Shown: positions 11,131-63,680 of the stretch, one piece after another
Numbering within the stretch: position 1 is the first letter of the stretch
How the letters are laid out: each line of letters begins with the position of its first letter
Assembly (NCBI GenBank): GCA_900546565.1
Contig: URDC01000001.1
Span: 83,796 to 147,795 of the forward strand
Length of the DNA: 64,000 bases
DNA from: an uncultured Opitutales bacterium
Lineage (GTDB): Bacteria > Verrucomicrobiota > Verrucomicrobiia > Opitutales > Intestinicryptomonadaceae
Reading direction: 5' to 3'
Translations under genes and position numbers: made by a program
Notes under the pieces: model-generated
Told to the model about the DNA's origin: nothing
The model's input: the letters and a program-made list of their open reading frames with translations, nothing else
Database searches by the model: none

Positions 11131-11139
11131 TTGATTGTA

Positions 11140-11440
11140 ATTCCTGAGGTGTGGCGTGGATTGAATTTTCCTGCTACGCCTCTTAGCTCTCCGAGGTGTG
11201 GCGTGGATTGAATTTCCCTGTTATGCCTCTTAGCTTTCCGAAGTGTGGCGGATTTTTTATTTCCCGTCCGGCTTCTGACTCTCTGAGGTGTGGCGAGGAG
11301 TTAAGTTCCCTGTCGCGCTTTGGTGCGGAGGAGAGCGCGGCGATGGTTTAAGTTCCGTGTCGCGCTTCGGTTCTGAGGAGAGTGTGGCGGATTTTATATG
11401 CGCCGAGTTCTCGTTCGGATTGGCGGTGTGGATTTTTTTC
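11140..11440. repeat. degenerate tandem-repeat array of ~46-48-bp units with core GAGGTGTGGCG(T/A)GGATTGAATTT(T/C)CCTG
   Basis: The GTGTGGCG core recurs at ~11149, 11197, 11243, 11288 and 11382, with a degenerate copy at ~11424. Neighbouring units share 35-40 of 48 nt. It sits in the 750-bp rpsJ-rplC spacer. Confidence 0.8.
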
Positions 11441-11879
11441 GCGCAGCTGATTTGGAGAGGCGGAAGTTCTTTTTAGCTGGTGTGCACGAATTGGCTTTGA
11501 TTTTTGCAAAGTCGGAGGCGTGTATGTTTGCTTTTCGGCGTGAGCCTCGGTGGAAATCGGGCTTGTGTCTTATACATTTTTTACAAATTTTGGCGTAAAT
11601 TTTTTGAAGCATCTGTTCGGGATTTTTCCCAAAAAGAGCAGAGAACCGAAAAGTTTACGCGATATTTGTCGAAAAATTTTGCTAAAAACAAAAAAATTTG
11701 TTGACAGGGTTTATGTTTTTATCAACATTGTGCCCTTTACAAATTTTATCAACCAAAACAACTAAAGCAGGTTTAAAGGGGTTTGGCATTGTAGAAACTC
11801 TCCGAAAGGGTGCGGACAAACTGTTGTTCGGCTGAAATCGGGGTTTTGAAGATGTGAAATTCCGCCTGCCGCTTAGAAA

Positions 11880-25782: not shown

Positions 25783-26364
25783 ATGCGTCATCAAAAACAC
25801 AGACATCAGTTGGGCGTAAAAAAAGAACACCGCCAAGCCATTATGGCTTCGTTGGCGTCGGCTCTTTTCCGCCACGATAAAATTCAGACAACTCTCGGAT
25901 ACGCAAAGGCACTTCGTCCTTTTGCGGAAAAAATGATTACTTTGGCAAAGAAGGCTGCCGCCACCGACGACACCGCCAAGAAACTTCACCTGCGCCGTCA
26001 GGCGTTGTCGAAGATTCGCGACGTCAGCGCGGTTCACTTCCTCTTTGCCGAAAAGGTTTCGAAGTTCCTCAAACGCGAAGGCGGTTACACCCGCATTTAC
26101 AAGCTTGTAAAGCGCACGGGCGACGCCGCGGATATGGCGATTATCGAGCTTATCGAAGCCGACGACAAAGGCTACAAGGCTGCCCCCACGAAGGCTGAAA
26201 AGCCCGCCGCAGAAGCCGCCAAAGCTCCCGTAGCGGAGGAAACCCCCGCGGCGGAAGAAGCCAAGAAACCCGCCAAGAAAACCGCTACAAAGAAAGCGGC
26301 TGCCAAAAAGACGGCTACTAAAAAGGCCGCCAAGAAGGCTGCGGGCGCGGAAACAAAGGAATAA
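25783..26364 (+). CDS. rplQ: 50S ribosomal protein L17 with a ~70-aa Lys/Ala/Glu-rich, histone H1-like C-terminal tail
   Basis: The N-terminal ~120 aa are L17-like (MRHQKHRHQLGVKKEHR...). The C-terminus is built of AAKK/PAAE repeats. Confidence 0.9.
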   Translation: MRHQKHRHQLGVKKEHRQAIMASLASALFRHDKIQTTLGYAKALRPFAEKMITLAKKAAATDDTAKKLHLRRQALSKIRDVSAVHFLFAEKVSKFLKREGGYTRIYKLVKRTGDAADMAIIELIEADDKGYKAAPTKAEKPAAEAAKAPVAEETPAAEEAKKPAKKTATKKAAAKKTATKKAAKKAAGAETKE

Positions 26365-26674: not shown

Positions 26675-28216
26675 ATGAATCAAAAGATAGCTGTTTTAGA
26701 TTTCGGTTCGCAATATACGCAGGTCATAGCGCGCAGAATCCGCGAGTTGAACGTGTATTCGGAGATTATGCCGTTCAACACAAAGGCGTCGGTGCTCAAA
26801 AAGCAGGGCGTTTGCGGCGTAATTCTTTCGGGCGGTCCCGCCAGCGTTTTGGCGAAAGGTTCGCCGCGTCCCGACCCGAAGGTTTTCGAGCTCGGAGTGC
26901 CCGTGCTCGGCATTTGCTACGGATTGCAGCTGATGGGTAAAATGCTCGGCGGCGCGGTGGTTTCGAGCAAGCAGCGCGAATACGGGTTGGGAAAATTGTC
27001 GTTTACGGAGTCGGATAGCGATTTGCTCAAAGGGATAAAGTCGCCGATTCAGGTTTGGAATTCGCACGGCGACAGAATGGACAAGCTCCCGACGGGGTTC
27101 AAGGCGATTGGCACGACCGAAAATTCTTCGTGCGCGCTTATCGAAAACAAGGCGAAGCGTTTTTACGGAATGCAGTTCCACCCCGAAGTCGCGCACACGC
27201 CGCGCGGCATTGAAATCATCAAGAATTTCCTCTACAACATTTGCGGTTGCACGGGCGACTGGAAAATGTCGGACTATGTCGAAACGTCGATTAAGCGCAT
27301 TCGCGAAACTGTCGGCGACAAGAAGGTTATTTTGGGTCTTAGCGGCGGCGTGGACTCGTCGGTGGCGGCGGCTCTTATCCACAAGGCTATCGGCGAGCAG
27401 CTCACCTGCGTGTTTGTCGACAACGGTTTGTTGCGCAAGGACGAACGCAAGAAGGTTGAAGCACTTTTCAAGAACAATTTCAAAATCAAGATGAAGACCG
27501 TTCGAGCCGAAAAGCTTTTCCTCGGGCGTCTCAAAGGCGTGAAAGACCCCGAGCGCAAGCGCAAGATTATCGGAAAGACGTTTATCGAGGTCTTTGACAA
27601 GGCGGTTAAATCAATTGGTCAGGTCGATTTCTTGGCGCAGGGGACACTGTATCCCGACGTTATTGAGAGTGTGCCGATTGCGGGGAATCCCGCCTCGCTC
27701 ATCAAGAGCCACCACAATGTCGGCGGGTTGCCGAAGAAAATGAAGCTCAAATTGCTCGAACCCCTCCGTGAGCTCTTCAAGGACGAAGTTCGCGCGCTCG
27801 GCAAAGAGCTTGGGCTTTCGAAGGAGGTTTTGTGGCGTCATCCGTTCCCTGGGCCGGGTCTTGGTGTTCGTGTTGTCGGCGAGGTCAAAAAGTCTTACTG
27901 CGACGTTCTGCGCGAAGCCGATGCCATTCTTATGGAGGAAATGTATGCAAGCGGTCTTTATTATGGTTTATGGCAGGCGTTTGCGGTATTTGTTCCCGTC
28001 AAGACTGTCGGTGTAATGGGTGATGAGCGCACGTATGACAATGTTATTGCCTTGCGCATTGTCGAAAGTCAGGACGCTATGACTGCCGACTGGGCGCACG
28101 TTCCCCACGACATTTTAGGCAAGATTTCCAATCGAATTATCAATGAGGTCAAAGGTGTCAATCGTGTGGTTCTCGACATTTCTTCGAAGCCTCCTGCGAC
28201 AATCGAATGGGAATAA
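26675..28216 (+). CDS. guaA: GMP synthase (glutamine-hydrolysing)
   Basis: 513 aa with the class-I GATase domain (GICYGLQ, HPE) and the ATP-PPase SGGVDSS motif. Confidence 0.95.
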
Positions 28217-28575
28217 TTTTATAGTTTCGAAAGGGGCGGCGGTTGCCAACGGCAATCCCGCCTTTGACTATTTATTAAAGTAAAGCAGTTATTGCGAAGC
28301 AATCTGCGCCACTTCACAACATTTAAAATACCCTCGACGGAGAGCGGGGTGCTTTGCCCCCGAGGTTGAATTGGCGAAGCCAAGAGCTGAGCGACGATAA
28401 GAGCGAGTTAACTCCTACCCGCGAAGTATTTCCGTCCTTCCCCCGTTTGGTAAAGCAGTTATTGCGAAGCAATCTGCGCCACTTCACAACATTTAAAATT
28501 TTTCGAAAGAGGCGGCGATTGCCAAAGGCAATCCCTCCTTTGTTTATTTATTGAAGTCGTATCTATAAATAAATC
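28217..28575. repeat. mosaic intergenic repeat region: two 54-bp direct repeats (28277-28330 and 28446-28499) plus a shared 42-bp module and small GC hairpins
   Basis: TAAAGCAGTTATTGCGAAGCAATCTGCGCCACTTCACAACATTTAAAAT occurs twice. TTGAATTGGCGAAGCCAAGAGCTGAGCGACGATAAGAGCG (28366-28407) recurs at 37657-37696 and, reverse-complemented, at 42447-42488. The 54-bp repeat recurs reverse-complemented and diverged at ~34120-34165. Confidence 0.85.
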
Positions 28576-28580
28576 CACTC

Positions 28581-28616
28581 AAAACTCCTCACGGTTTTCA
28601 CGCGAGGAGTTTTTTA
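28581..28616 (+). terminator. intrinsic terminator for guaA, overlapping the 3' end of the convergent yggU-like gene
   Basis: AAAACTCCTCacggttttcacgCGAGGAGTTTTTT. Confidence 0.6.
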
Positions 28617-32870: not shown

Positions 32871-33749
32871 ATGAAAAGTATGACGGGCTTTGGGCGCGAA
32901 TGCGCCGACTTCGAAGATTTTTCGGTGTCGGTCGACATCTCGTCGGTCAACAAAAAGGGTCTCGAAATTTCGGTGTCGCTGCCGCGCGAATGGGGCGCGA
33001 TGGAGCGTCTTATCGGCGCGGAGCTCAAAAGGCGTTTTTCGCGCGGAAAGTTCAATGTCGCGCTCAATGTCGAGTTTAAGCTTGCCGAAAGCGGCGTGTT
33101 TGCCGACGCCGATATGCTTGCGGCGTCGCTTGCAAAGCTGCGCGATTTTTGCGGGGCAAACGGCATTGACCCGCGTTTGACTTCCGCCGATGTGCTCGAA
33201 CTCAACCGCCAGCTTTCCGAAAAATCCGTGCGGCGCGTTGTCGATGTCGAAGCCCAATGGGGTAAGCTTTTGCCCGTTTTTGCCGCCGCCTGCGAAAAGC
33301 TTGACGAAATGCGTGGCGTCGAAGGCGCGGCGTTGAAGCTCGACCTCGCCGAGCGCGTCGGCAGAATAAAAGCCCTCGTCGCGCGCGCGCGTGTGTTTGC
33401 CGCGGAATCGCCCGCCAAGTATCGCGAATCGCTTATGCAGAAGTTGGCGGCAATCGGGCTTAATCTCGACTTCAATGACGAGCGCGTTTTGAAGGAGGTT
33501 TGCATTTTTGCCGACAAGTGCGATGTCGCCGAAGAATTGACGCGGCTCGAAAGCCACGTTGCCCAATTTTATTCGATTATTGAGCTTGACGAAGCCGTCG
33601 GGCGCAAGCTCGATTTTCTTTGTCAGGAGATGGGGCGCGAAATCAACACGACGGCGAGCAAAGCCAACAATCTCGACCTCACCAAAATCGCGATAGACTT
33701 GAAGAACGAGCTTGAAAGGGTACGCGAGCAAGTCCAAAACCTCGAATAA
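32871..33749 (+). CDS. yicC: YicC-family stress-induced protein
   Basis: Begins MKSMTGFGR..., as E. coli YicC begins MIRSMTAYAR. The C-terminus DVAEELTRLESHV...AVGRKLDFLCQEMGREINT matches the YicC C-terminal domain. Confidence 0.85.
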   Translation: MKSMTGFGRECADFEDFSVSVDISSVNKKGLEISVSLPREWGAMERLIGAELKRRFSRGKFNVALNVEFKLAESGVFADADMLAASLAKLRDFCGANGIDPRLTSADVLELNRQLSEKSVRRVVDVEAQWGKLLPVFAAACEKLDEMRGVEGAALKLDLAERVGRIKALVARARVFAAESPAKYRESLMQKLAAIGLNLDFNDERVLKEVCIFADKCDVAEELTRLESHVAQFYSIIELDEAVGRKLDFLCQEMGREINTTASKANNLDLTKIAIDLKNELERVREQVQNLE

Positions 33750-33865
33750 AAAAACGGGCGAGGACGTACGCCTCCGAGGCAAATTATTTCATTATTTACC
33801 TGAAAATGTTTCCCAGTCGGGAAACATTTTTTGTATTTAAATTTGCCCCAGAGGCGCACTCGCAG
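33750..33865 (+). repeat. MITE-like palindromic element (copy B) abutting the yicC stop codon, containing an intrinsic terminator
   Basis: AAAAAACGGGCGAGGACGTACGCCTCCGAGG-caaat...atttg-CCCCAGAGGCGCACTCGC with an inner hairpin AATGTTTCCCagtcGGGAAACATT + TTTTGTATTT (33803-33838). Confidence 0.8.
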
Positions 33866-34315
33866 CCAAAAATGACTCGCGTTTGCTACGCAAACCGTTT
33901 GACACGCTACTGCGTGCCCTTCGGGTGCGTTTTGCAAACGCATCTATACGCGCCTTCGGCTTGTATTCGCCCCTACGGGGTCGTTGCTTGGCAACGCTCA
34001 AACGCGCTACGCTTGTTTTCGGTTTCGCTTCGCCTCACATACCTAAGTATGCTTCGGCTCGAATGGACATTCGGAGAGTTTCGGGGTATGCGGTATTGCC
34101 GAAGGCAATCGCATAGGGGTATTTTATAAGTTGGGAAGTGGCGCGGATTGCTACGCAATATCGCTTTGCTTTAATAGATAGACTAAGGCACATCGGCAAC
34201 GTCGATTGCCGTCTCTTACAAAAAATAGACAAAAAGTGTTGACATAATCTGCGTTTTTTCGGACAGTCGTCGCGCCTTATAAAGAATAAGGCTTTCTCAT
34301 AATCCCATAAATATG

Positions 34316-36787: not shown

Positions 36788-37543
36788 ATGAGACGCATTC
36801 TACTCACAAGGCAGGACAATTCAGCGGTTGCCGAACATTTCAAAGGCGGAGACTTCGAGATTTTGGAACTTCCCCTAATCGAGTGCATCCACAACGTCGA
36901 CGAGTCCGAAGCCTCCGACGTTTTCGGCGAACTCGGCGGCTACGATTGGCTCGTATTTTCAAGCCCGAACGCCGTCCGCGGCTTTTTCAAGGCGTTCTTC
37001 CGCGAATTTAACGACATTCGCGCCCTCGGAATCGCCCGCATTGCCTGCATAGGCGATGCCACCGTCCGCGAGCTTTCCAAATTCTACCTCCGCGCCGACG
37101 TCGTTCCCGAAGTCCAGACCGCGGCGGCTCTCGCCGAGGCAATGGGCGAATACGAAACCCTCGAAAATCTCAAAATTCTCTCCGTCCGCGGAAATCTCGC
37201 CTTGCCCGATTTAATCAAGGCTCTCGAAGCCCAGCGCGCCATAGTCGACGTTTTCGAAGTCTACAAAACAAACCTCGTCGCACTCAAATCCGACGATGCC
37301 GTAGTTGTAGATTTCCGCAAGAAGGGCGCGGACGCCGTTGTTTTTGCCAGTCCCTCGGCGGTCGAAAGTTTTGTCCGCAATCTCGACGCCATTGTTTTGG
37401 AGAAGGACGCTCTGCGCCCAAAAGTTGTCGCAATCGGTTCGACGACTGCCGACGCCGCAAAGAAGAAGGGAATGAAAGTCTCCGCCGTTTCGGAATCCCC
37501 GCGCCCCGAGGATATCGCAGCCGCCGTAAAATCCCTCTTCTAA
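36788..37543 (+). CDS. hemD: uroporphyrinogen-III synthase
   Basis: 251 aa HemD-like (ILLTRQD...WLVFSSPNAVRGFF...VVFASPSAVESF). Its start overlaps the upstream stop. Confidence 0.8.
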   Translation: MRRILLTRQDNSAVAEHFKGGDFEILELPLIECIHNVDESEASDVFGELGGYDWLVFSSPNAVRGFFKAFFREFNDIRALGIARIACIGDATVRELSKFYLRADVVPEVQTAAALAEAMGEYETLENLKILSVRGNLALPDLIKALEAQRAIVDVFEVYKTNLVALKSDDAVVVDFRKKGADAVVFASPSAVESFVRNLDAIVLEKDALRPKVVAIGSTTADAAKKKGMKVSAVSESPRPEDIAAAVKSLF

Positions 37544-37745
37544 AAACGGGCGAGGGCGTGCGCCTCCGAGTCGAATTTATTTTCTATAATCTAGAAAAGT
37601 TTTCCTTTCGGAAAACTTTTTTTGTTTTTTAGATTCGACTCGGAGGCGCACTCACGTTGAATTGGCGAAGCCAAGAGCTGAGCGACGATAGGAGCGTGTT
37701 AAAATCTGACGCGTCTTTTTAGCACGCGCCTCGCCCGTTTTTTTC
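37544..37745 (+). repeat. MITE-like palindromic element (copy C, ~200 bp) with terminal inverted repeats, abutting the hemD stop
   Basis: Left end AAAAACGGGCGAGGGCGTGCGCCTCCGAG-tcgaat. Inner terminator AAAAGTTTTCCtttcGGAAAACTTTT + TTTGTTTTTT (37595-37630). Then attcga-CTCGGAGGCGCACTCACG, the TTGAATTGGCGAAGCC... module, and right end GCACGCGCCTCGCCCGTTTTTTT (reverse complement of the left end). Confidence 0.85.
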
Positions 37746-42189: not shown

Positions 42190-42439
42190 AAAAAAAATTC
42201 CGAAAAATTGTTTCATAAAAACTCGGTTCATTCCCGCTACGCGACAAAACGCGCCGCAATCCGACAACTTCCCCGACATTGCCTATACAAAATACACGCA
42301 ACCTTTAATCAAAATATTCTTCCAACCCCTCAAAAAAAATCAACACTTTTCTGAGCCGCTGGGCGGGTCGTCCCATTGCGATATATTCGAAAGCGCGCGA
42401 TAGTGCTAATGCATAGACCACCCGAACAACAAAATTAGA

Positions 42440-42800
42440 TTTTAACACGCTCCTACCGTCGCTGAGCTCTTGGCTTCGCCAATTCAACGTGAGTGCGCCT
42501 CTGGGGCAAACACAAAAGTTGCGAAGCAAGCTTTTGGGAAGAATAAAACACGAAGTGTTTTACCCGAAGGGCGACCACGTTTTACGTGGGAAGCTTTGCC
42601 GATAGGCAAAGAGCCGAGCGAAGCGAGTGCCGAGACATTTGTGAAACAAATGCGAGTTCAAAACAGCGCGGATTTTGCGTAGCAAAACCAAGCGAGCGAG
42701 TTCAATTTAATAATCAAAAAAAAGAAGTTCCGAATGGAACTTCTTTCAGCATTATAAAAATAAATTTTGCCCCAGAGGGACGTCCTCGCCCGTTTTTTAT
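42440..42800 (-). repeat. MITE-like element (copy D, reverse orientation) with a ~200-bp internal insert of serial short hairpins, abutting the stop of the upstream minus-strand gene
   Basis: Read on the minus strand: stop-AAAACGGGCGAGGACGTCCCTCTGGGGCAAA, then terminator hairpin GAAGTTCCattcGGAACTTC + T8 (42711-42746), then a string of hairpins, then GCCCCAGAGGCGCACTCACG and the TTGAATTGGCGAAGCC... module. Confidence 0.8.
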
Positions 42801-43560
42801 TTGAGAGAGGCGGAACGCCACCAATCATAGTGCTCATTTTCAAGCTCCTTGACTGAGGGCATCGGATAAAACAACATTTCGCCGCCGCCGCCGATAAAGA
42901 AGCCAGAGCGAATCATTCTATACGGAAATTCGCTTGTCGTGCGCAATAAAACCTTGCTGTTCTTGCCGCCTTTTTGCGAAACCTGAATCAGGCAGTCGCG
43001 CATATGGTATTGATTCGCATAGGGCAAAACAGTGATGTCTCCATTGTAAACATCGTCTTCAAGTTCGCCAAGCTTCATATCGCAAAAGGCAATCTTGTCA
43101 AAACGCACCAAACGGTCTGACGCAGTAATTTCGCATGCGTATTGTGCGGGATTTAAAATGCTCACAACCCGCGTGCGCGACGGGGCGAGCGTCTGATACA
43201 TATACGGGTGGATTTTCCGGTCGGGGACAAATTCGCCGCGCGAAAGTTTCAGAGCCTTGCCATCACTCGTGACGACATATAAATTGCCGACGGCCGAAAA
43301 CGGGACGTGTTCGAGTACCCTGTAAACCGATAAATACACCGACTTGTGCGGCGAGCCGTCCGCGTGCGGCTTGCAAAGTTCTTCGAGCCTGCCTACGGGC
43401 AAATAGTCGCTTTTAAATTTCTTGTCCAGCTCGAAAAAAATCGCTTGCGAATAATTGCGCCTCAACGAACCCGTCGCAAAATACGCGCCGAATTCCTTCG
43501 GCGATAAATTCGAGGCAATCAACGCTTCGGGCGAGAGCGATAAATACAGATGAGTTTGCA
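42797..43560 (-). CDS. hypothetical protein
   Basis: The start is set at MQTHLYLSL (43560); the tabulated ORF extends to 43828 with an implausible Cys/Trp-rich leader. No recognisable family. Divergent from the holA-like gene. Confidence 0.55.
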
Positions 43561-43864
43561 TATAGACCTTTCGTCTTTCGTTGTTCTGACGCTTTTTGGC
43601 GATTTTTCCACAGGAAGCCCAGCCCCATATCCCGACTCTTCCAACCCAGTCCCCGCAACGCGCGCGCCATGTTGAATAACATGCCACAAACAGAGTCGGA
43701 AGAACCGAAAAAAAAGAGCGGAACCACCGCGGAAGGAATCCTCCGTTAACGAGTAGATTATTTTCTTCCTCTCCCGATAAGTCAACCATAAAATACGTTC
43801 CAGCCCAACCTCCACAACATAAATACACTTGAAATCGGCGCGCAAAAATCCATTTTAAAAAACT

Positions 43865-53599: not shown

Positions 53600-54000
53600 A
53601 ACCCCTCGACGGAATACGGGGGTTTTTTATATGTTCCGAAAGAGGCGCGGGATTAGCTTTCAGCTAATTCCCCGCTTTACTTTTTTTTTGTTAAAGTTGT
53701 GTAAAAAGCTGCCATTACGGATTACGCGTTCGCAAATTGAATTGTGGCGTATATCGCAATAGCCACAAGAGAATCCATTATAAACCGCGTTTCCTCCGCT
53801 GGCGGGTTTTCGTAGCTTGGTAAGCGGCGCGGGATTAGCTTTCAGCTAATCCCCCGCTTTATTTTTTTGTTAAAGTTGTGTAAATAGCTTACCCTACGGA
53901 TTACGCGGACTCGTAATAATTTCGTGCTTCCCCTGCTGGTGGGCTTCCATAGTTTGGAAAGCGGCGGCGAATTGCCTATTGCAATCCGCCGCCGCTTTCA
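53600..54000 (+). repeat. tandemly duplicated ~185-bp units, each containing an intrinsic terminator hairpin
   Basis: GCGCGGGATTAGCtttcAGCTAATCCCCCGC + T-run occurs at 53645-53688 and 53823-53868. It is followed in both units by GTTAAAGTTGTGTAAA(A/T)AGCT...ACGGATTACGCG and a third related hairpin (53958-54000). Confidence 0.8.
53645..53688 (+). terminator. intrinsic terminator after the GH28-like gene
   Basis: Hairpin GCGGGATTAGCtttcAGCTAATTCCCCGC followed by T9. Confidence 0.65.
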
Positions 54001-54060
54001 AATTTATAAAAACCCCGCTATTGGCAGCCCGCCCGGCGGGACGGCCTTGCCCGTTTTTTT

Positions 54061-54795
54061 TTAGAAGTTTTCGTTTTCTTCGTCGTCAATGGGGCTATCG
54101 AAGTCGTCGAGGTCGTCGTCATCGATATCGTCGTCTTCTTCGTCCCACTTCATTGTATCGTCTTCGGCGAGCTCTTCTTCGGCAATATCCTCGATTTCGT
54201 CGTAATTTTCCTCTTCCTGTTTTTTCTTGGGGTCGTCTTCGTCGAGGTCGTCGAGCGAGTAGCCAGCGGGGACATATTCGAGAATGTCGAGGATTTCAAG
54301 GAAGACGTGTATTGCGCGTCCGTCCATGTAGTCGTTCGAATATTTTTCGCGGATTTGCTCTTCGAGATCCTCAATTTCGACGTCCTGCTCGAAATGGAAG
54401 GTATCGTTTAACATTTTGACCTGCATTTTTGTGATGTGGTCGAGAAATTCGGCGTAGGGGGAACGTTCTTCGTCGAGTGTATCCGGGAGTAGGAAAAGCT
54501 GCTGTTCTTCGGCTTCGAAGACACTTTCGTTGCTGCGGACGAGTTTTATGCCGTCTTTGCCGATGCGCGAATCTATGGAAAATGTGATGAAAGCTTTTTC
54601 GACGATTGAGTCGTCGAGACCGTAGGGGCGCAGGGATTCGAGCGTATCGAGAATGTATGTGGCTTGGCGGGGATCGATGACGCTGAGTCCGTCGATGTCC
54701 CAATTAACGTTGTCGCTGGTTTCTGTTACCCACCAATTCAGGTCTTTGCCGAGTCTTACTTTGCACCAGTTGAGTTTGATTGAAGTTTTTGCCAT
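54061..54795 (-). CDS. hypothetical protein with a ~90-aa poly-Asp/Glu C-terminal tail
   Basis: 244 aa. The N-terminal ~150 aa form a globular-looking domain (NWWVTETSDNVNWDIDGLSVIDP...). The tail is DDLDEDDPKKKQEEENYDEIEDIAEEELAEDD...DDDIDDDDLDDFD. No known family. Confidence 0.6.
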   Translation of the reverse strand: MAKTSIKLNWCKVRLGKDLNWWVTETSDNVNWDIDGLSVIDPRQATYILDTLESLRPYGLDDSIVEKAFITFSIDSRIGKDGIKLVRSNESVFEAEEQQLFLLPDTLDEERSPYAEFLDHITKMQVKMLNDTFHFEQDVEIEDLEEQIREKYSNDYMDGRAIHVFLEILDILEYVPAGYSLDDLDEDDPKKKQEEENYDEIEDIAEEELAEDDTMKWDEEDDDIDDDDLDDFDSPIDDEENENF

Positions 54796-63059: not shown

Positions 63060-63277
63060 TTCTTTGCTAAAACGGGCGAGGGCGTGCGCCTTCGTTGCGA
63101 ATAATTTTATTTTTTACGGAAACATTCCACATTCGTGGAATGTTTTTTGTATTTAGATTCGCAACGGAGGCGCACTCACGGCTAAAAGACGGTTTTATTT
63201 CGGACTTGCGACCAATCGGTCGCCGACGCCTCATAAAACGCGAATCCTGCCTCGAGCCTCGCCCGTTTTAGCCAGCA
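63060..63277 (+). repeat. MITE-like palindromic element (copy E) with terminal inverted repeats, upstream of lepA
   Basis: AAAACGGGCGAGGGCGTGCGCCTtcg-ttgcgaat. Inner hairpin GGAAACATTCCACattcGTGGAATGTTTT + TTGTATTT. Then attcgcaa-CGGAGGCGCACTCACG ... right end CGAGCCTCGCCCGTTTTA. Confidence 0.8.
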
Positions 63278-63539
63278 CCCACGGTTATTCTAATCCGAAG
63301 AAATAATGCAAACGAAAGAGAGTAAAAAAAAGATTTTCCGAATGGGAAGATTTTATAGTTTCGAAAGAGACGCGGATTACTTCGTAATATCTGCTTTATC
63401 TCTCATTAAAGAAAAGCGGAACGAAGTTAAGCTTTTCCATTATTTTTCGGATTAGGGTAAACGTGTGAGCCGAAAAAACGCGCGAGGCGCGTGCCATAAA
63501 ATCGCGGCTTTGCGAGCCGTAGCGTACTAAACGTACGTG

Positions 63540-63680
63540 AGGCGAAGCGAAACCGATTTTTGGCCGTGAGAGCGCCTCTTAATCGAATCTAAAAAATCAA
63601 AAAGCGTTCTTCGAATGAAGAACGCTCTGGTATAAATTAAATAAATTCGATTAAGAGGCGCACGCCATCGCGCGTTTTTT
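63540..63680 (-). repeat. MITE-like element core (copy F, reverse orientation) between lepA and sod
   Basis: Read on the minus strand: GGCGTGCGCCTCttaa-tcgaat, then hairpin AGAGCGTTCTTCattcGAAGAACGCT + TTTTGATTTTTT, then attcga-ttaaGAGGCGCTCTCACGG. This is near-identical in architecture to copy C. Confidence 0.8.

Follow-up and report, generated by a model that had tools for sequence, protein, structure and literature searches.

ERIC/IRU elements are imperfect palindromes of about 127 bp that reside in transcribed intergenic regions and have orientation-dependent effects on mRNA, and MIRUs are co-oriented with their neighbouring genes and overlap the stop and start codons of these genes. The BOX elements of Streptococcus pneumoniae have a modular boxA-boxB(n)-boxC organisation with a variable number of modules and a predicted RNA structure. 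The BIMEs, clusters of REP sequences in Escherichia coli and its relatives, are extragenic GC-rich imperfect palindromes mosaicked with short motifs; they are often found after genes or between convergent genes, the number of their units varies between strains, and they have been associated with recombination and with mRNA 3'-end stability (PMC3184786). The neisserial NIMEs are arrays of 50-150-bp intergenic cassettes thought to promote recombination (PMC3184786), and the Correia elements, a type of MITE, have long inverted repeats and are co-transcribed (in part PMC3184786).

In an uncultured Opitutales bacterium (Verrucomicrobiota) of the human gut, guaA and yggU are convergent, and the spacer between them is filled by a block of the same kind, i.e. 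modular intergenic hairpin repeats, without sequence membership in the BIME, BOX, SPRITE, NIME, Correia, ERIC or MIRU families. Like the BIMEs, the hairpins of this locus are GC-rich and clustered in alternating orientation with linkers; unlike the BIMEs, to which they bear no sequence relationship, the units are longer and nested hairpin-in-hairpin, and the main scaffold is anchored on stop codons and contains an intrinsic terminator. As for the GTAG/CTAC tetranucleotide of the BIMEs, AATGTAGTGAAG precedes only a sub-family of A-like units here, and the two A units of the block are preceded by TTTCGAAAG instead. With BOX and SPRITE elements the locus shares a modular make-up, a varying number of units in a convergent spacer and embedded terminator hairpins, but the phylum and the sequences differ, there is no Rfam-level homology, and where BOX repeats its middle module, cargo cassettes are exchanged here inside conserved stems. 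No single short junction repeat comparable to dRS3 of the NIMEs delimits the cassettes, and there is no TA target duplication of the Correia type. ERIC and MIRU elements are not known to resemble the block in sequence or to be organised around an embedded terminator with exchangeable cargo. The anchoring on stop codons of a main scaffold that itself holds a terminator is somewhat unusual, as is the exchange of cassettes within conserved stems. We consider it probable that the block is a strain-variable mosaic of non-coding hairpin repeat modules of the BIME/BOX/SPRITE type, with a terminator and 3'-UTR role, that is shuffled by recombination between copies.

Organisation of the guaA-yggU spacer

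Unit A1 lies 8 nt after the guaA stop codon, and the modules of the block are arranged in the order A1–B1–H–C–T–B2–A2, followed by a small AT-rich hairpin and a shared bidirectional terminator. Coordinates refer to the window, the whole 64,000-nucleotide stretch of DNA that was analysed.

26675-28216, plus strand: guaA, encoding GMP synthase (Pfam GATase and GMP_synt_C)
28225-28281, plus strand: unit A1, consisting of TTTCGAAAG, a GC-rich hairpin (GGCGGCGGTTGCC AAC GGCAATCCCGCC) and a T-rich tail
28280-28329, plus strand: unit B1, a 50-nt repeat with an ATTGC-GAA-GCAAT minihairpin, 100% identical to B2
28330-28365, plus strand: H, the 5' half of the H..T scaffold (CCCTCGACGGAGAGCGGGG-loop-CCCCCGAGG), recognised by strain comparison
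28366-28411, plus strand: the C module, TTGAATTGGCGAAGCCAAGAGCTGAGCGACGATAAGAGCGAGTTAA, with the hairpin TTGGC-GAA-GCCAA; cargo of the H..T scaffold
28412-28449, plus strand: T, the 3' half of the H..T scaffold (CTCCTACCCGCGAAGTATTTCCGTCCTTCCCCCGTTTG)
28450-28499, plus strand: unit B2, the second perfect B copy
28501-28557, plus strand: unit A2, a terminator-like hairpin followed by TTTGTTTATTTATT
28581-28613, either strand: bidirectional terminator hairpin, an inverted repeat (AAAACTCCTCACG / CGCGAGGAGTTTT) that overlaps the last yggU codons
28598-28852, minus strand: yggU (DUF167; Pfam PF02594), convergent with guaA

The A unit consists of TTTCGAAAG, a GC hairpin and TATTTATTAAAG, and its two copies are 88% identical over 57 nt. 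A1 is terminator-like, co-oriented with guaA, and occupies the position at which sister species carry the guaA terminator in the form of a plain hairpin. A terminator scan called A2 as terminator-like (28517-28542) and did not call A1, the T tract of which is weak. Read on the minus strand, B is likewise a terminator-like unit, placed tail-to-tail with A1; the plus-sense A hairpins and minus-sense B hairpins are arranged tail-to-tail and head-to-head with AT-rich linkers between them. All the repeats described in the original prediction are present and none of them is expected by chance, the direct repeat of B having no match in 100 shuffles. This repeat had been described as 54 bp long; it is real and 100% identical, but its length is 50 nt and its starts lie 3-4 nt away from those first proposed. 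Similarly, the GC-hairpin units do exist, as A1, A2, a unit near 53635 and one at 63339-63417, but those assigned to 28237 and 28503 span 28225-28281 and 28501-28557, respectively.

The modules also have features in common. Both B and C contain the GCGAAGC minihairpin, with a 5-bp stem and a GAA loop (28294-28300, 28376-28382 and copies of these), a motif that is exceptionally stable in DNA. The hairpins of C, AATTGGCGAAGCCAAT, and of an A-like variant, ATTGGCTTCGCCAAT, are reverse complements of each other, which suggests derivation of modules from one another in either orientation. The only open reading frame across the block, of 66 amino acids (28354-28554), has no Pfam match, and it is lost in the five of 12 strains whose spacer is without the H-C-T segment; a coding function was rejected. 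The tRNA and tmRNA models found nothing in the window.

Just upstream of guaA, a 27-nt tandem repeat of 2.7 copies with 74% matches (26263-26337) lies around the place where the L17 gene ends, in a region rich in lysine and alanine; this gene is called at 173, 184 and 193 amino acids in three strains.

Dispersed copies of the modules

Dispersed copies exist for all segments of the block. A census of 308 kb, comprising conspecific metagenome contigs and the window, counted 38 copies of C and between two and 23 copies of each of the other modules, including 12-13 for the A family and eight for B. Within the window, C, taken over 40 nt (28366-28405), recurs on the plus strand at 37657-37696 with 39 of 40 positions identical and on the minus strand at 42448-42487 with 37 of 40; extended to 47 nt, these copies are 96% and 91% identical, and 100 shuffles gave no match of this kind. 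The anticipated recurrence of a 42-bp module at 37657 and, reverse-complemented, at 42447 is thereby confirmed, as is its MITE-like context, since both copies lie within long quasi-palindromic elements. A and B together form a recurrent composite, which is found reverse-complemented at 34117-34223 with 75% identity over 109 nt, in agreement with the diverged inverted unit foreseen at about 34120-34210. A-like units are found near 53635 and 53822 and at 63339-63417 (73%). The larger repeat blocks of the window are as follows.

33748-34223, plus strand: canonical element after yicC, with Arm 1 at 33748-33859, a hairpin array and the reverse-complemented A+B composite at 34117-34223
37542-37744, plus strand: canonical stop-codon-anchored nested-hairpin element after hemD, with C at 37657-37702 and an inner terminator at 37593-37622
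42437-42798, minus strand: canonical element downstream of the minus-strand gene 42797-43828; contains an inserted array of hairpins, C at 42442-42488 and an inner terminator at 42747-42720
53618-54071, plus strand: further repeat block; A-like units span 53640-53689 and 53822-53871, and a 35-nt palindrome spans 53941-54015
63068-63679, both strands: two canonical elements in inverted orientation forming a quasi-palindrome of ~610 nt, with the A-like unit 63339-63417 between them

The window thus holds five canonical elements, starting at 33748 (+), 37542 (+), 42798 (-), 63068 (+) and 63679 (-), of which all except that at 63068 follow a co-oriented gene. The element at 63068 (+) has no plus-strand gene upstream and is the sole exception in the window to the stop-codon rule described below; the quasi-palindrome of which it forms part is 64% self-complementary. 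A record look-up of the protein encoded at 42800-43828 returned no entry, probably because of a different start codon. The two A-like units of the 53618-54071 block, which lies between a GH28-like gene and a minus-strand ORF, are 182 nt apart and 92% identical. Elsewhere in the window, rpsJ (S10) and rplC (L3), normally adjacent in the S10 operon, are parted by a 749-nt spacer (11131-11879) that contains 47-nt repeats (GAGGTGTGGCGTGGATTGAATTTCCCTGCTACGCCTCTTAGCTCTCC) at 11146-11250 and diverged copies of these as far as about 11400; a TTGACA-like sequence precedes rplC.

A perfect 50-nt repeat such as B could in principle reflect a mere local tandem duplication or an assembly artefact, unrelated to the rest of the genome, and one strain locus (L002) indeed shows further tandem expansion of the B-repeat unit. 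This reading deserves next to no credence: it is refuted by the dispersed copies, every module being present at unlinked loci. The modules are accordingly not confined to the window. The same arrangement is moreover found in an independent assembly, ERZ653849, which reproduces the block base for base (L001, 381/381), and it is therefore not an assembly artefact; different assemblies form a graded series of related arrangements. A CRISPR array was considered and rejected: the spacing of B is irregular (170 nt in the window; 170, 106 and 251 nt in L002), the would-be spacers are themselves dispersed repeats, and the neighbours are ribosomal and housekeeping genes.

The canonical nested-hairpin element

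A scan of metagenome contigs with a 20-nt core of C yielded 31 loci, all of them from human gut and many located at contig ends. The assembly ERZ1026944 contains at least 12 C loci, and it represents the same species because its YicC is identical to that of the window. For the most part C is cargo inside a nested-hairpin element of ~250 nt and constant architecture, here called canonical, which is the most frequent of the scaffolds. The outer stem P1 is formed by GGGCGAGG+CGTGC pairing with GCACG+CCTCGCCC; Arm 1 is a long stem, variable and covarying in its middle part, around an intrinsic terminator hairpin and a T run, and Arm 2 carries cassettes such as X1 (GGGAGGTCTGTGCATTAGCACTATCCCTCC) and C. 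The elements are devoid of ORFs and range from about 110 to 330 nt, with 19 copies of the 5' terminus in the 308-kb sample.

Canonical elements are anchored on stop codons: 13 of 15 distinct elements have such a codon, ending a same-strand ORF of 133 codons or more, between -11 and +23 nt from the first base of P1, and usually this stop is the TAA contained in the conserved 5' end of the element itself, CTAAAAACGGGCGAGG. Three other canonical copies use a TGA inside a P1 variant (CGACTGAGG). A miaA-like ORF reads 23 nt into the element at two loci (L088:1550 and L105:507), so that the repeat supplies the last residues of the protein as well as its stop codon.

The inner hairpins of canonical elements are called as terminators on the sense strand. 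A full element (L098:1780-2027) is predicted to fold with -118.6 kcal/mol (z = -9.9), and 15 of 31 pairs of Arm 1 display compensatory double changes. G.T wobbles outnumber A.C mismatches by 47:2 in the whole of Arm 1 and by 18:4 in the outer stem, and the sense strand folds better than the antisense strand in 17 of 18 Arm 1 copies. This bias, to which the T tract and the kinship of the copies contribute, is suggestive of selection on the single-stranded sense form, for which the transcript is the simplest candidate. Compensatory changes were also seen by eye in the X1 hairpin (GGGAGG/CCCTCC vs GGGTGG/CCCACC; GTGC/GCAC vs GTAC/GTAC), and none were seen in C, where the alignment of the C-bearing arm comprised five distinct full-length copies.

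At its ends the element bears terminal inverted repeats, the 5' CTAAAACGGGCGAGGGCGTGCGCCTC being mirrored by the 3' GAGGCGCAC or GCACGCGCCTCGCCCGTTTTAG, and conserved tail sequence runs on beyond the 3' inverted repeat. A search for target-site duplications at the ends, including TA and CTAG, found none that was consistent. At least five loci share a C-bearing deletion variant, recognisable by the junction TCACG|TTGAATTGG, and variants therefore propagate.

Variation between strains

The guaA spacer was compared in 12 strain assemblies encoding an identical YggU protein, in which its length is 340, 340, 343, 343, 344, 381, 381, 464, 606, 736, 738 and 778 bp. Depending on the strain, the spacer holds between none and two H-C-T units and between one and four B units, and in the five strains from which C is absent the arrangement is A1-K-B-A2. 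The H loops are either empty or filled with a nested insert of ~85 nt (83-91 nt) that bears an A-like unit; in some strains an H..T unit is in turn nested in the apex of an A hairpin. In one H..T copy of L132, C has given way to GCGGATTTCGCGT, and this version forms a perfect hairpin. Amid these changes the hairpin at 28581-28613 is invariant in 11 closely related spacers; it is diverged in L133. A second, diverged H-C-T-B composite lies at another locus (L102), antisense to the neighbouring genes, from which it follows that a strict dependence on gene orientation is a property of the canonical scaffold only, and not of C, A+B or H..T.

Exchange is equally apparent at other loci. In eight strains with an identical HemD, Arm 1 and P1 of the element downstream of hemD are almost identical, and the cargo between GAGGCGCACTCACG and TTTTTAGCACGCGCC is C in four of them and an unrelated 69-nt cassette in the other four, with the downstream tail being swapped independently of the cargo. 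At the yicC locus two strains have a wholly different canonical element at the same stop codon, and in one strain Arm 1 is precisely deleted. These strain comparisons are the decisive evidence. The idea of a limited stock of recombining modules common to the intergenic regions is upheld, given that strains differ in the combinations present at the same loci and every segment has dispersed copies. C is dispensable at both the guaA and the hemD locus. The families share one principle, namely hairpin scaffolds with exchangeable cargo in their loops or arms, and C is one of several such cargo cassettes. The polymorphisms are replacements that are bounded by conserved scaffold and lack target duplications, a pattern that fits recombination or gene conversion better than it fits simple transposition.

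The last point bears on the reading of the elements as classical DNA-level MITEs, with terminal inverted repeats as binding sites of a transposase whose gene lies elsewhere in the genome, a mosaic generated by nested transposition into hairpins, and C as a passenger or a fragment of a transposon end. Much in their appearance agrees with it: they are small, multi-copy and without ORF, quasi-palindromic with 30-nt inverted termini (CTAAAACGGGCGAGG...CCTCGCCCGTTTTAG), their nested hairpin loops are filled or empty depending on the strain, modules are found in either orientation, copies coincide with contig breaks, and the TCACG|TTGAATTGG junction is the same at no fewer than five distinct loci. 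We nevertheless regard it as unlikely. No consistent target-site duplication is found either at the ends or between filled and empty sites, where replacements rather than simple insertions are seen; the stems covary, so that no fixed transposase-binding sequence is kept; the canonical elements strictly follow the orientation of the gene upstream, at whose stop codon they are anchored; and no transposase is found among the genes called at annotated conspecific loci or in the Pfam-scanned subset of window ORFs.

The flanks of the repeat block at 33750-34200 differ by assembly. In the window, yicC (32871-33749) is followed by a DUF6786 gene (34439), yicC is followed by ppk in ERZ1026944 and by tatA in ERZ15609977, and rpmI-rplT together with another C copy precede the DUF6786 gene at L134 and L135. 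The window corresponds here to the left side of L144 and the right side of L135, joined in a shared repeat of ~130 nt (34069-34200), which is either a repeat-mediated rearrangement or a chimeric assembly join.

Restriction to one species

Proteins identical to those of the window come exclusively from assemblies of human-gut metagenomes and from three NCBI MAGs; MAGs of the species include GCA_037303825.1, GCA_964327955.1 and GCA_902462905.1. Among the GTDB matches listed, the closest GuaA proteins are 82-91% identical, and the MAG labels listed for these relatives are uncultured Opitutales, Coraliomargarita sp. CAG:312 and Candidatus Merdousia. An exact-match search for the C core in 185,579 GTDB representative genomes found no copy, and modules of the block have no match in 80 listed guaA loci of other genomes, including the species with 82-91% GuaA identity, or in viral contigs, phages and plasmids; the listed guaA loci may lack the representative of the species itself. 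A search of Rfam 15 at the gathering threshold returned nothing for the window and only tRNAs for nine related loci, so that no family matched the modules; with E values of up to 10, the block and the full element gave only hairpin or miRNA-like matches at chance level, the best in the block having E = 0.96 and 22.5 bits against a cut-off of 54 bits. The module families A, B, H..T and C, as well as K of other strains, are thus dispersed and restricted to this species.

Four loci of sister Opitutales (L004, L005, L011 and L013) have their own unrelated, species-specific repeat blocks directly after guaA, and other sister Opitutales have only a simple terminator there. Repeat accretion after guaA seems to be recurrent in the clade. 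Such rapid turnover between species is typical of selfish or neutral repeat families and not of conserved regulatory RNAs.

Function and mechanism of exchange

C has been proposed to be conserved strongly enough to suggest a function in its own right, as a small RNA segment or as a site for an RNA- or DNA-binding protein that is selected in many 3' UTRs. Its roughly 38 copies are 91-100% identical in at least six sequence contexts, its orientation within canonical scaffolds is constant and sense to the host gene, and it contains the very stable GCGAAGC minihairpin and, as read from the sequence, an AGGAG motif. Its 5' boundary is sharp and constant in all of these contexts, for which homologous recombination alone is not obviously an explanation. 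The strain data speak against this proposal, and we hold it to be distinctly improbable: C can be dispensed with at each locus examined, being absent from five of 12 guaA spacers and replaced in four of eight hemD loci, its 3' end is ragged with truncated copies, and the upstream sequence differs between contexts without any conserved promoter-like element. It is furthermore antisense to neighbouring genes in L102, matches no Rfam family, is absent from the sister species and every other genome searched, and varies among copies without a compensatory pattern. The identity of the C copies is better explained by recent copying between loci than by function.

The block is a mosaic of dispersed, species-restricted and non-coding hairpin modules that differ between conspecific strains. 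In the mechanism that we favour for this mosaic, recombination or gene conversion, acting across the short scaffold stretches that are conserved, would copy modules from one locus to another and exchange them, and unequal crossing-over would take place between perfect repeats such as B. At the RNA level the modules would have a generic role, providing or reinforcing termination and 3'-end hairpins for the flanking convergent transcripts, with A1 as the guaA-proximal terminator-like hairpin and the invariant hairpin at 28581-28613 as the shared final terminator. It is from sequence features that we infer this putative terminator and 3'-UTR role. C would be a passenger hairpin that can be lost, with no locus-specific function here, and may have a generic RNA-hairpin role in 3' UTRs. 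The copies that are antisense to neighbouring genes, A+B at 34117-34223 and H-C-T-B in L102, fit a repeat acting at the DNA level as well as one acting at the RNA level.

A bolder interpretation sees in the stop-codon-anchored hairpins a dedicated 3'-UTR cassette system, in which a conserved RNA scaffold, comprising the host gene's stop codon and terminator, would display exchangeable hairpin cassettes (C, X1, X2 and others), and these cassettes would be actively swapped between genes by a specific mechanism, e.g. a hairpin-targeting recombinase or template switching. This is a long shot; if true, the mechanism would be one that has not been described for BIME, BOX or MITE repeats, and the swaps would re-wire post-transcriptional control or create strain-level diversity in a gut bacterium.

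Implications

The element class itself is ordinary, and our understanding of it is unchanged by the finding; what is new is a family of modular intergenic repeats, previously undescribed and limited to one species, from an uncultured Verrucomicrobiota lineage of the human gut in which, to our knowledge, such elements have hitherto not been catalogued. Metagenome assembly suffers from the repeats, which cause breaks or mis-joins: contig ends fall in them in many cases, and the join at 33.75-34.2 kb of the window conflicts with other assemblies. The hypervariable spacers that the repeats create could serve as strain markers. Lastly, the repeats supply stop codons and terminators to housekeeping genes, and they may influence the expression of these genes.
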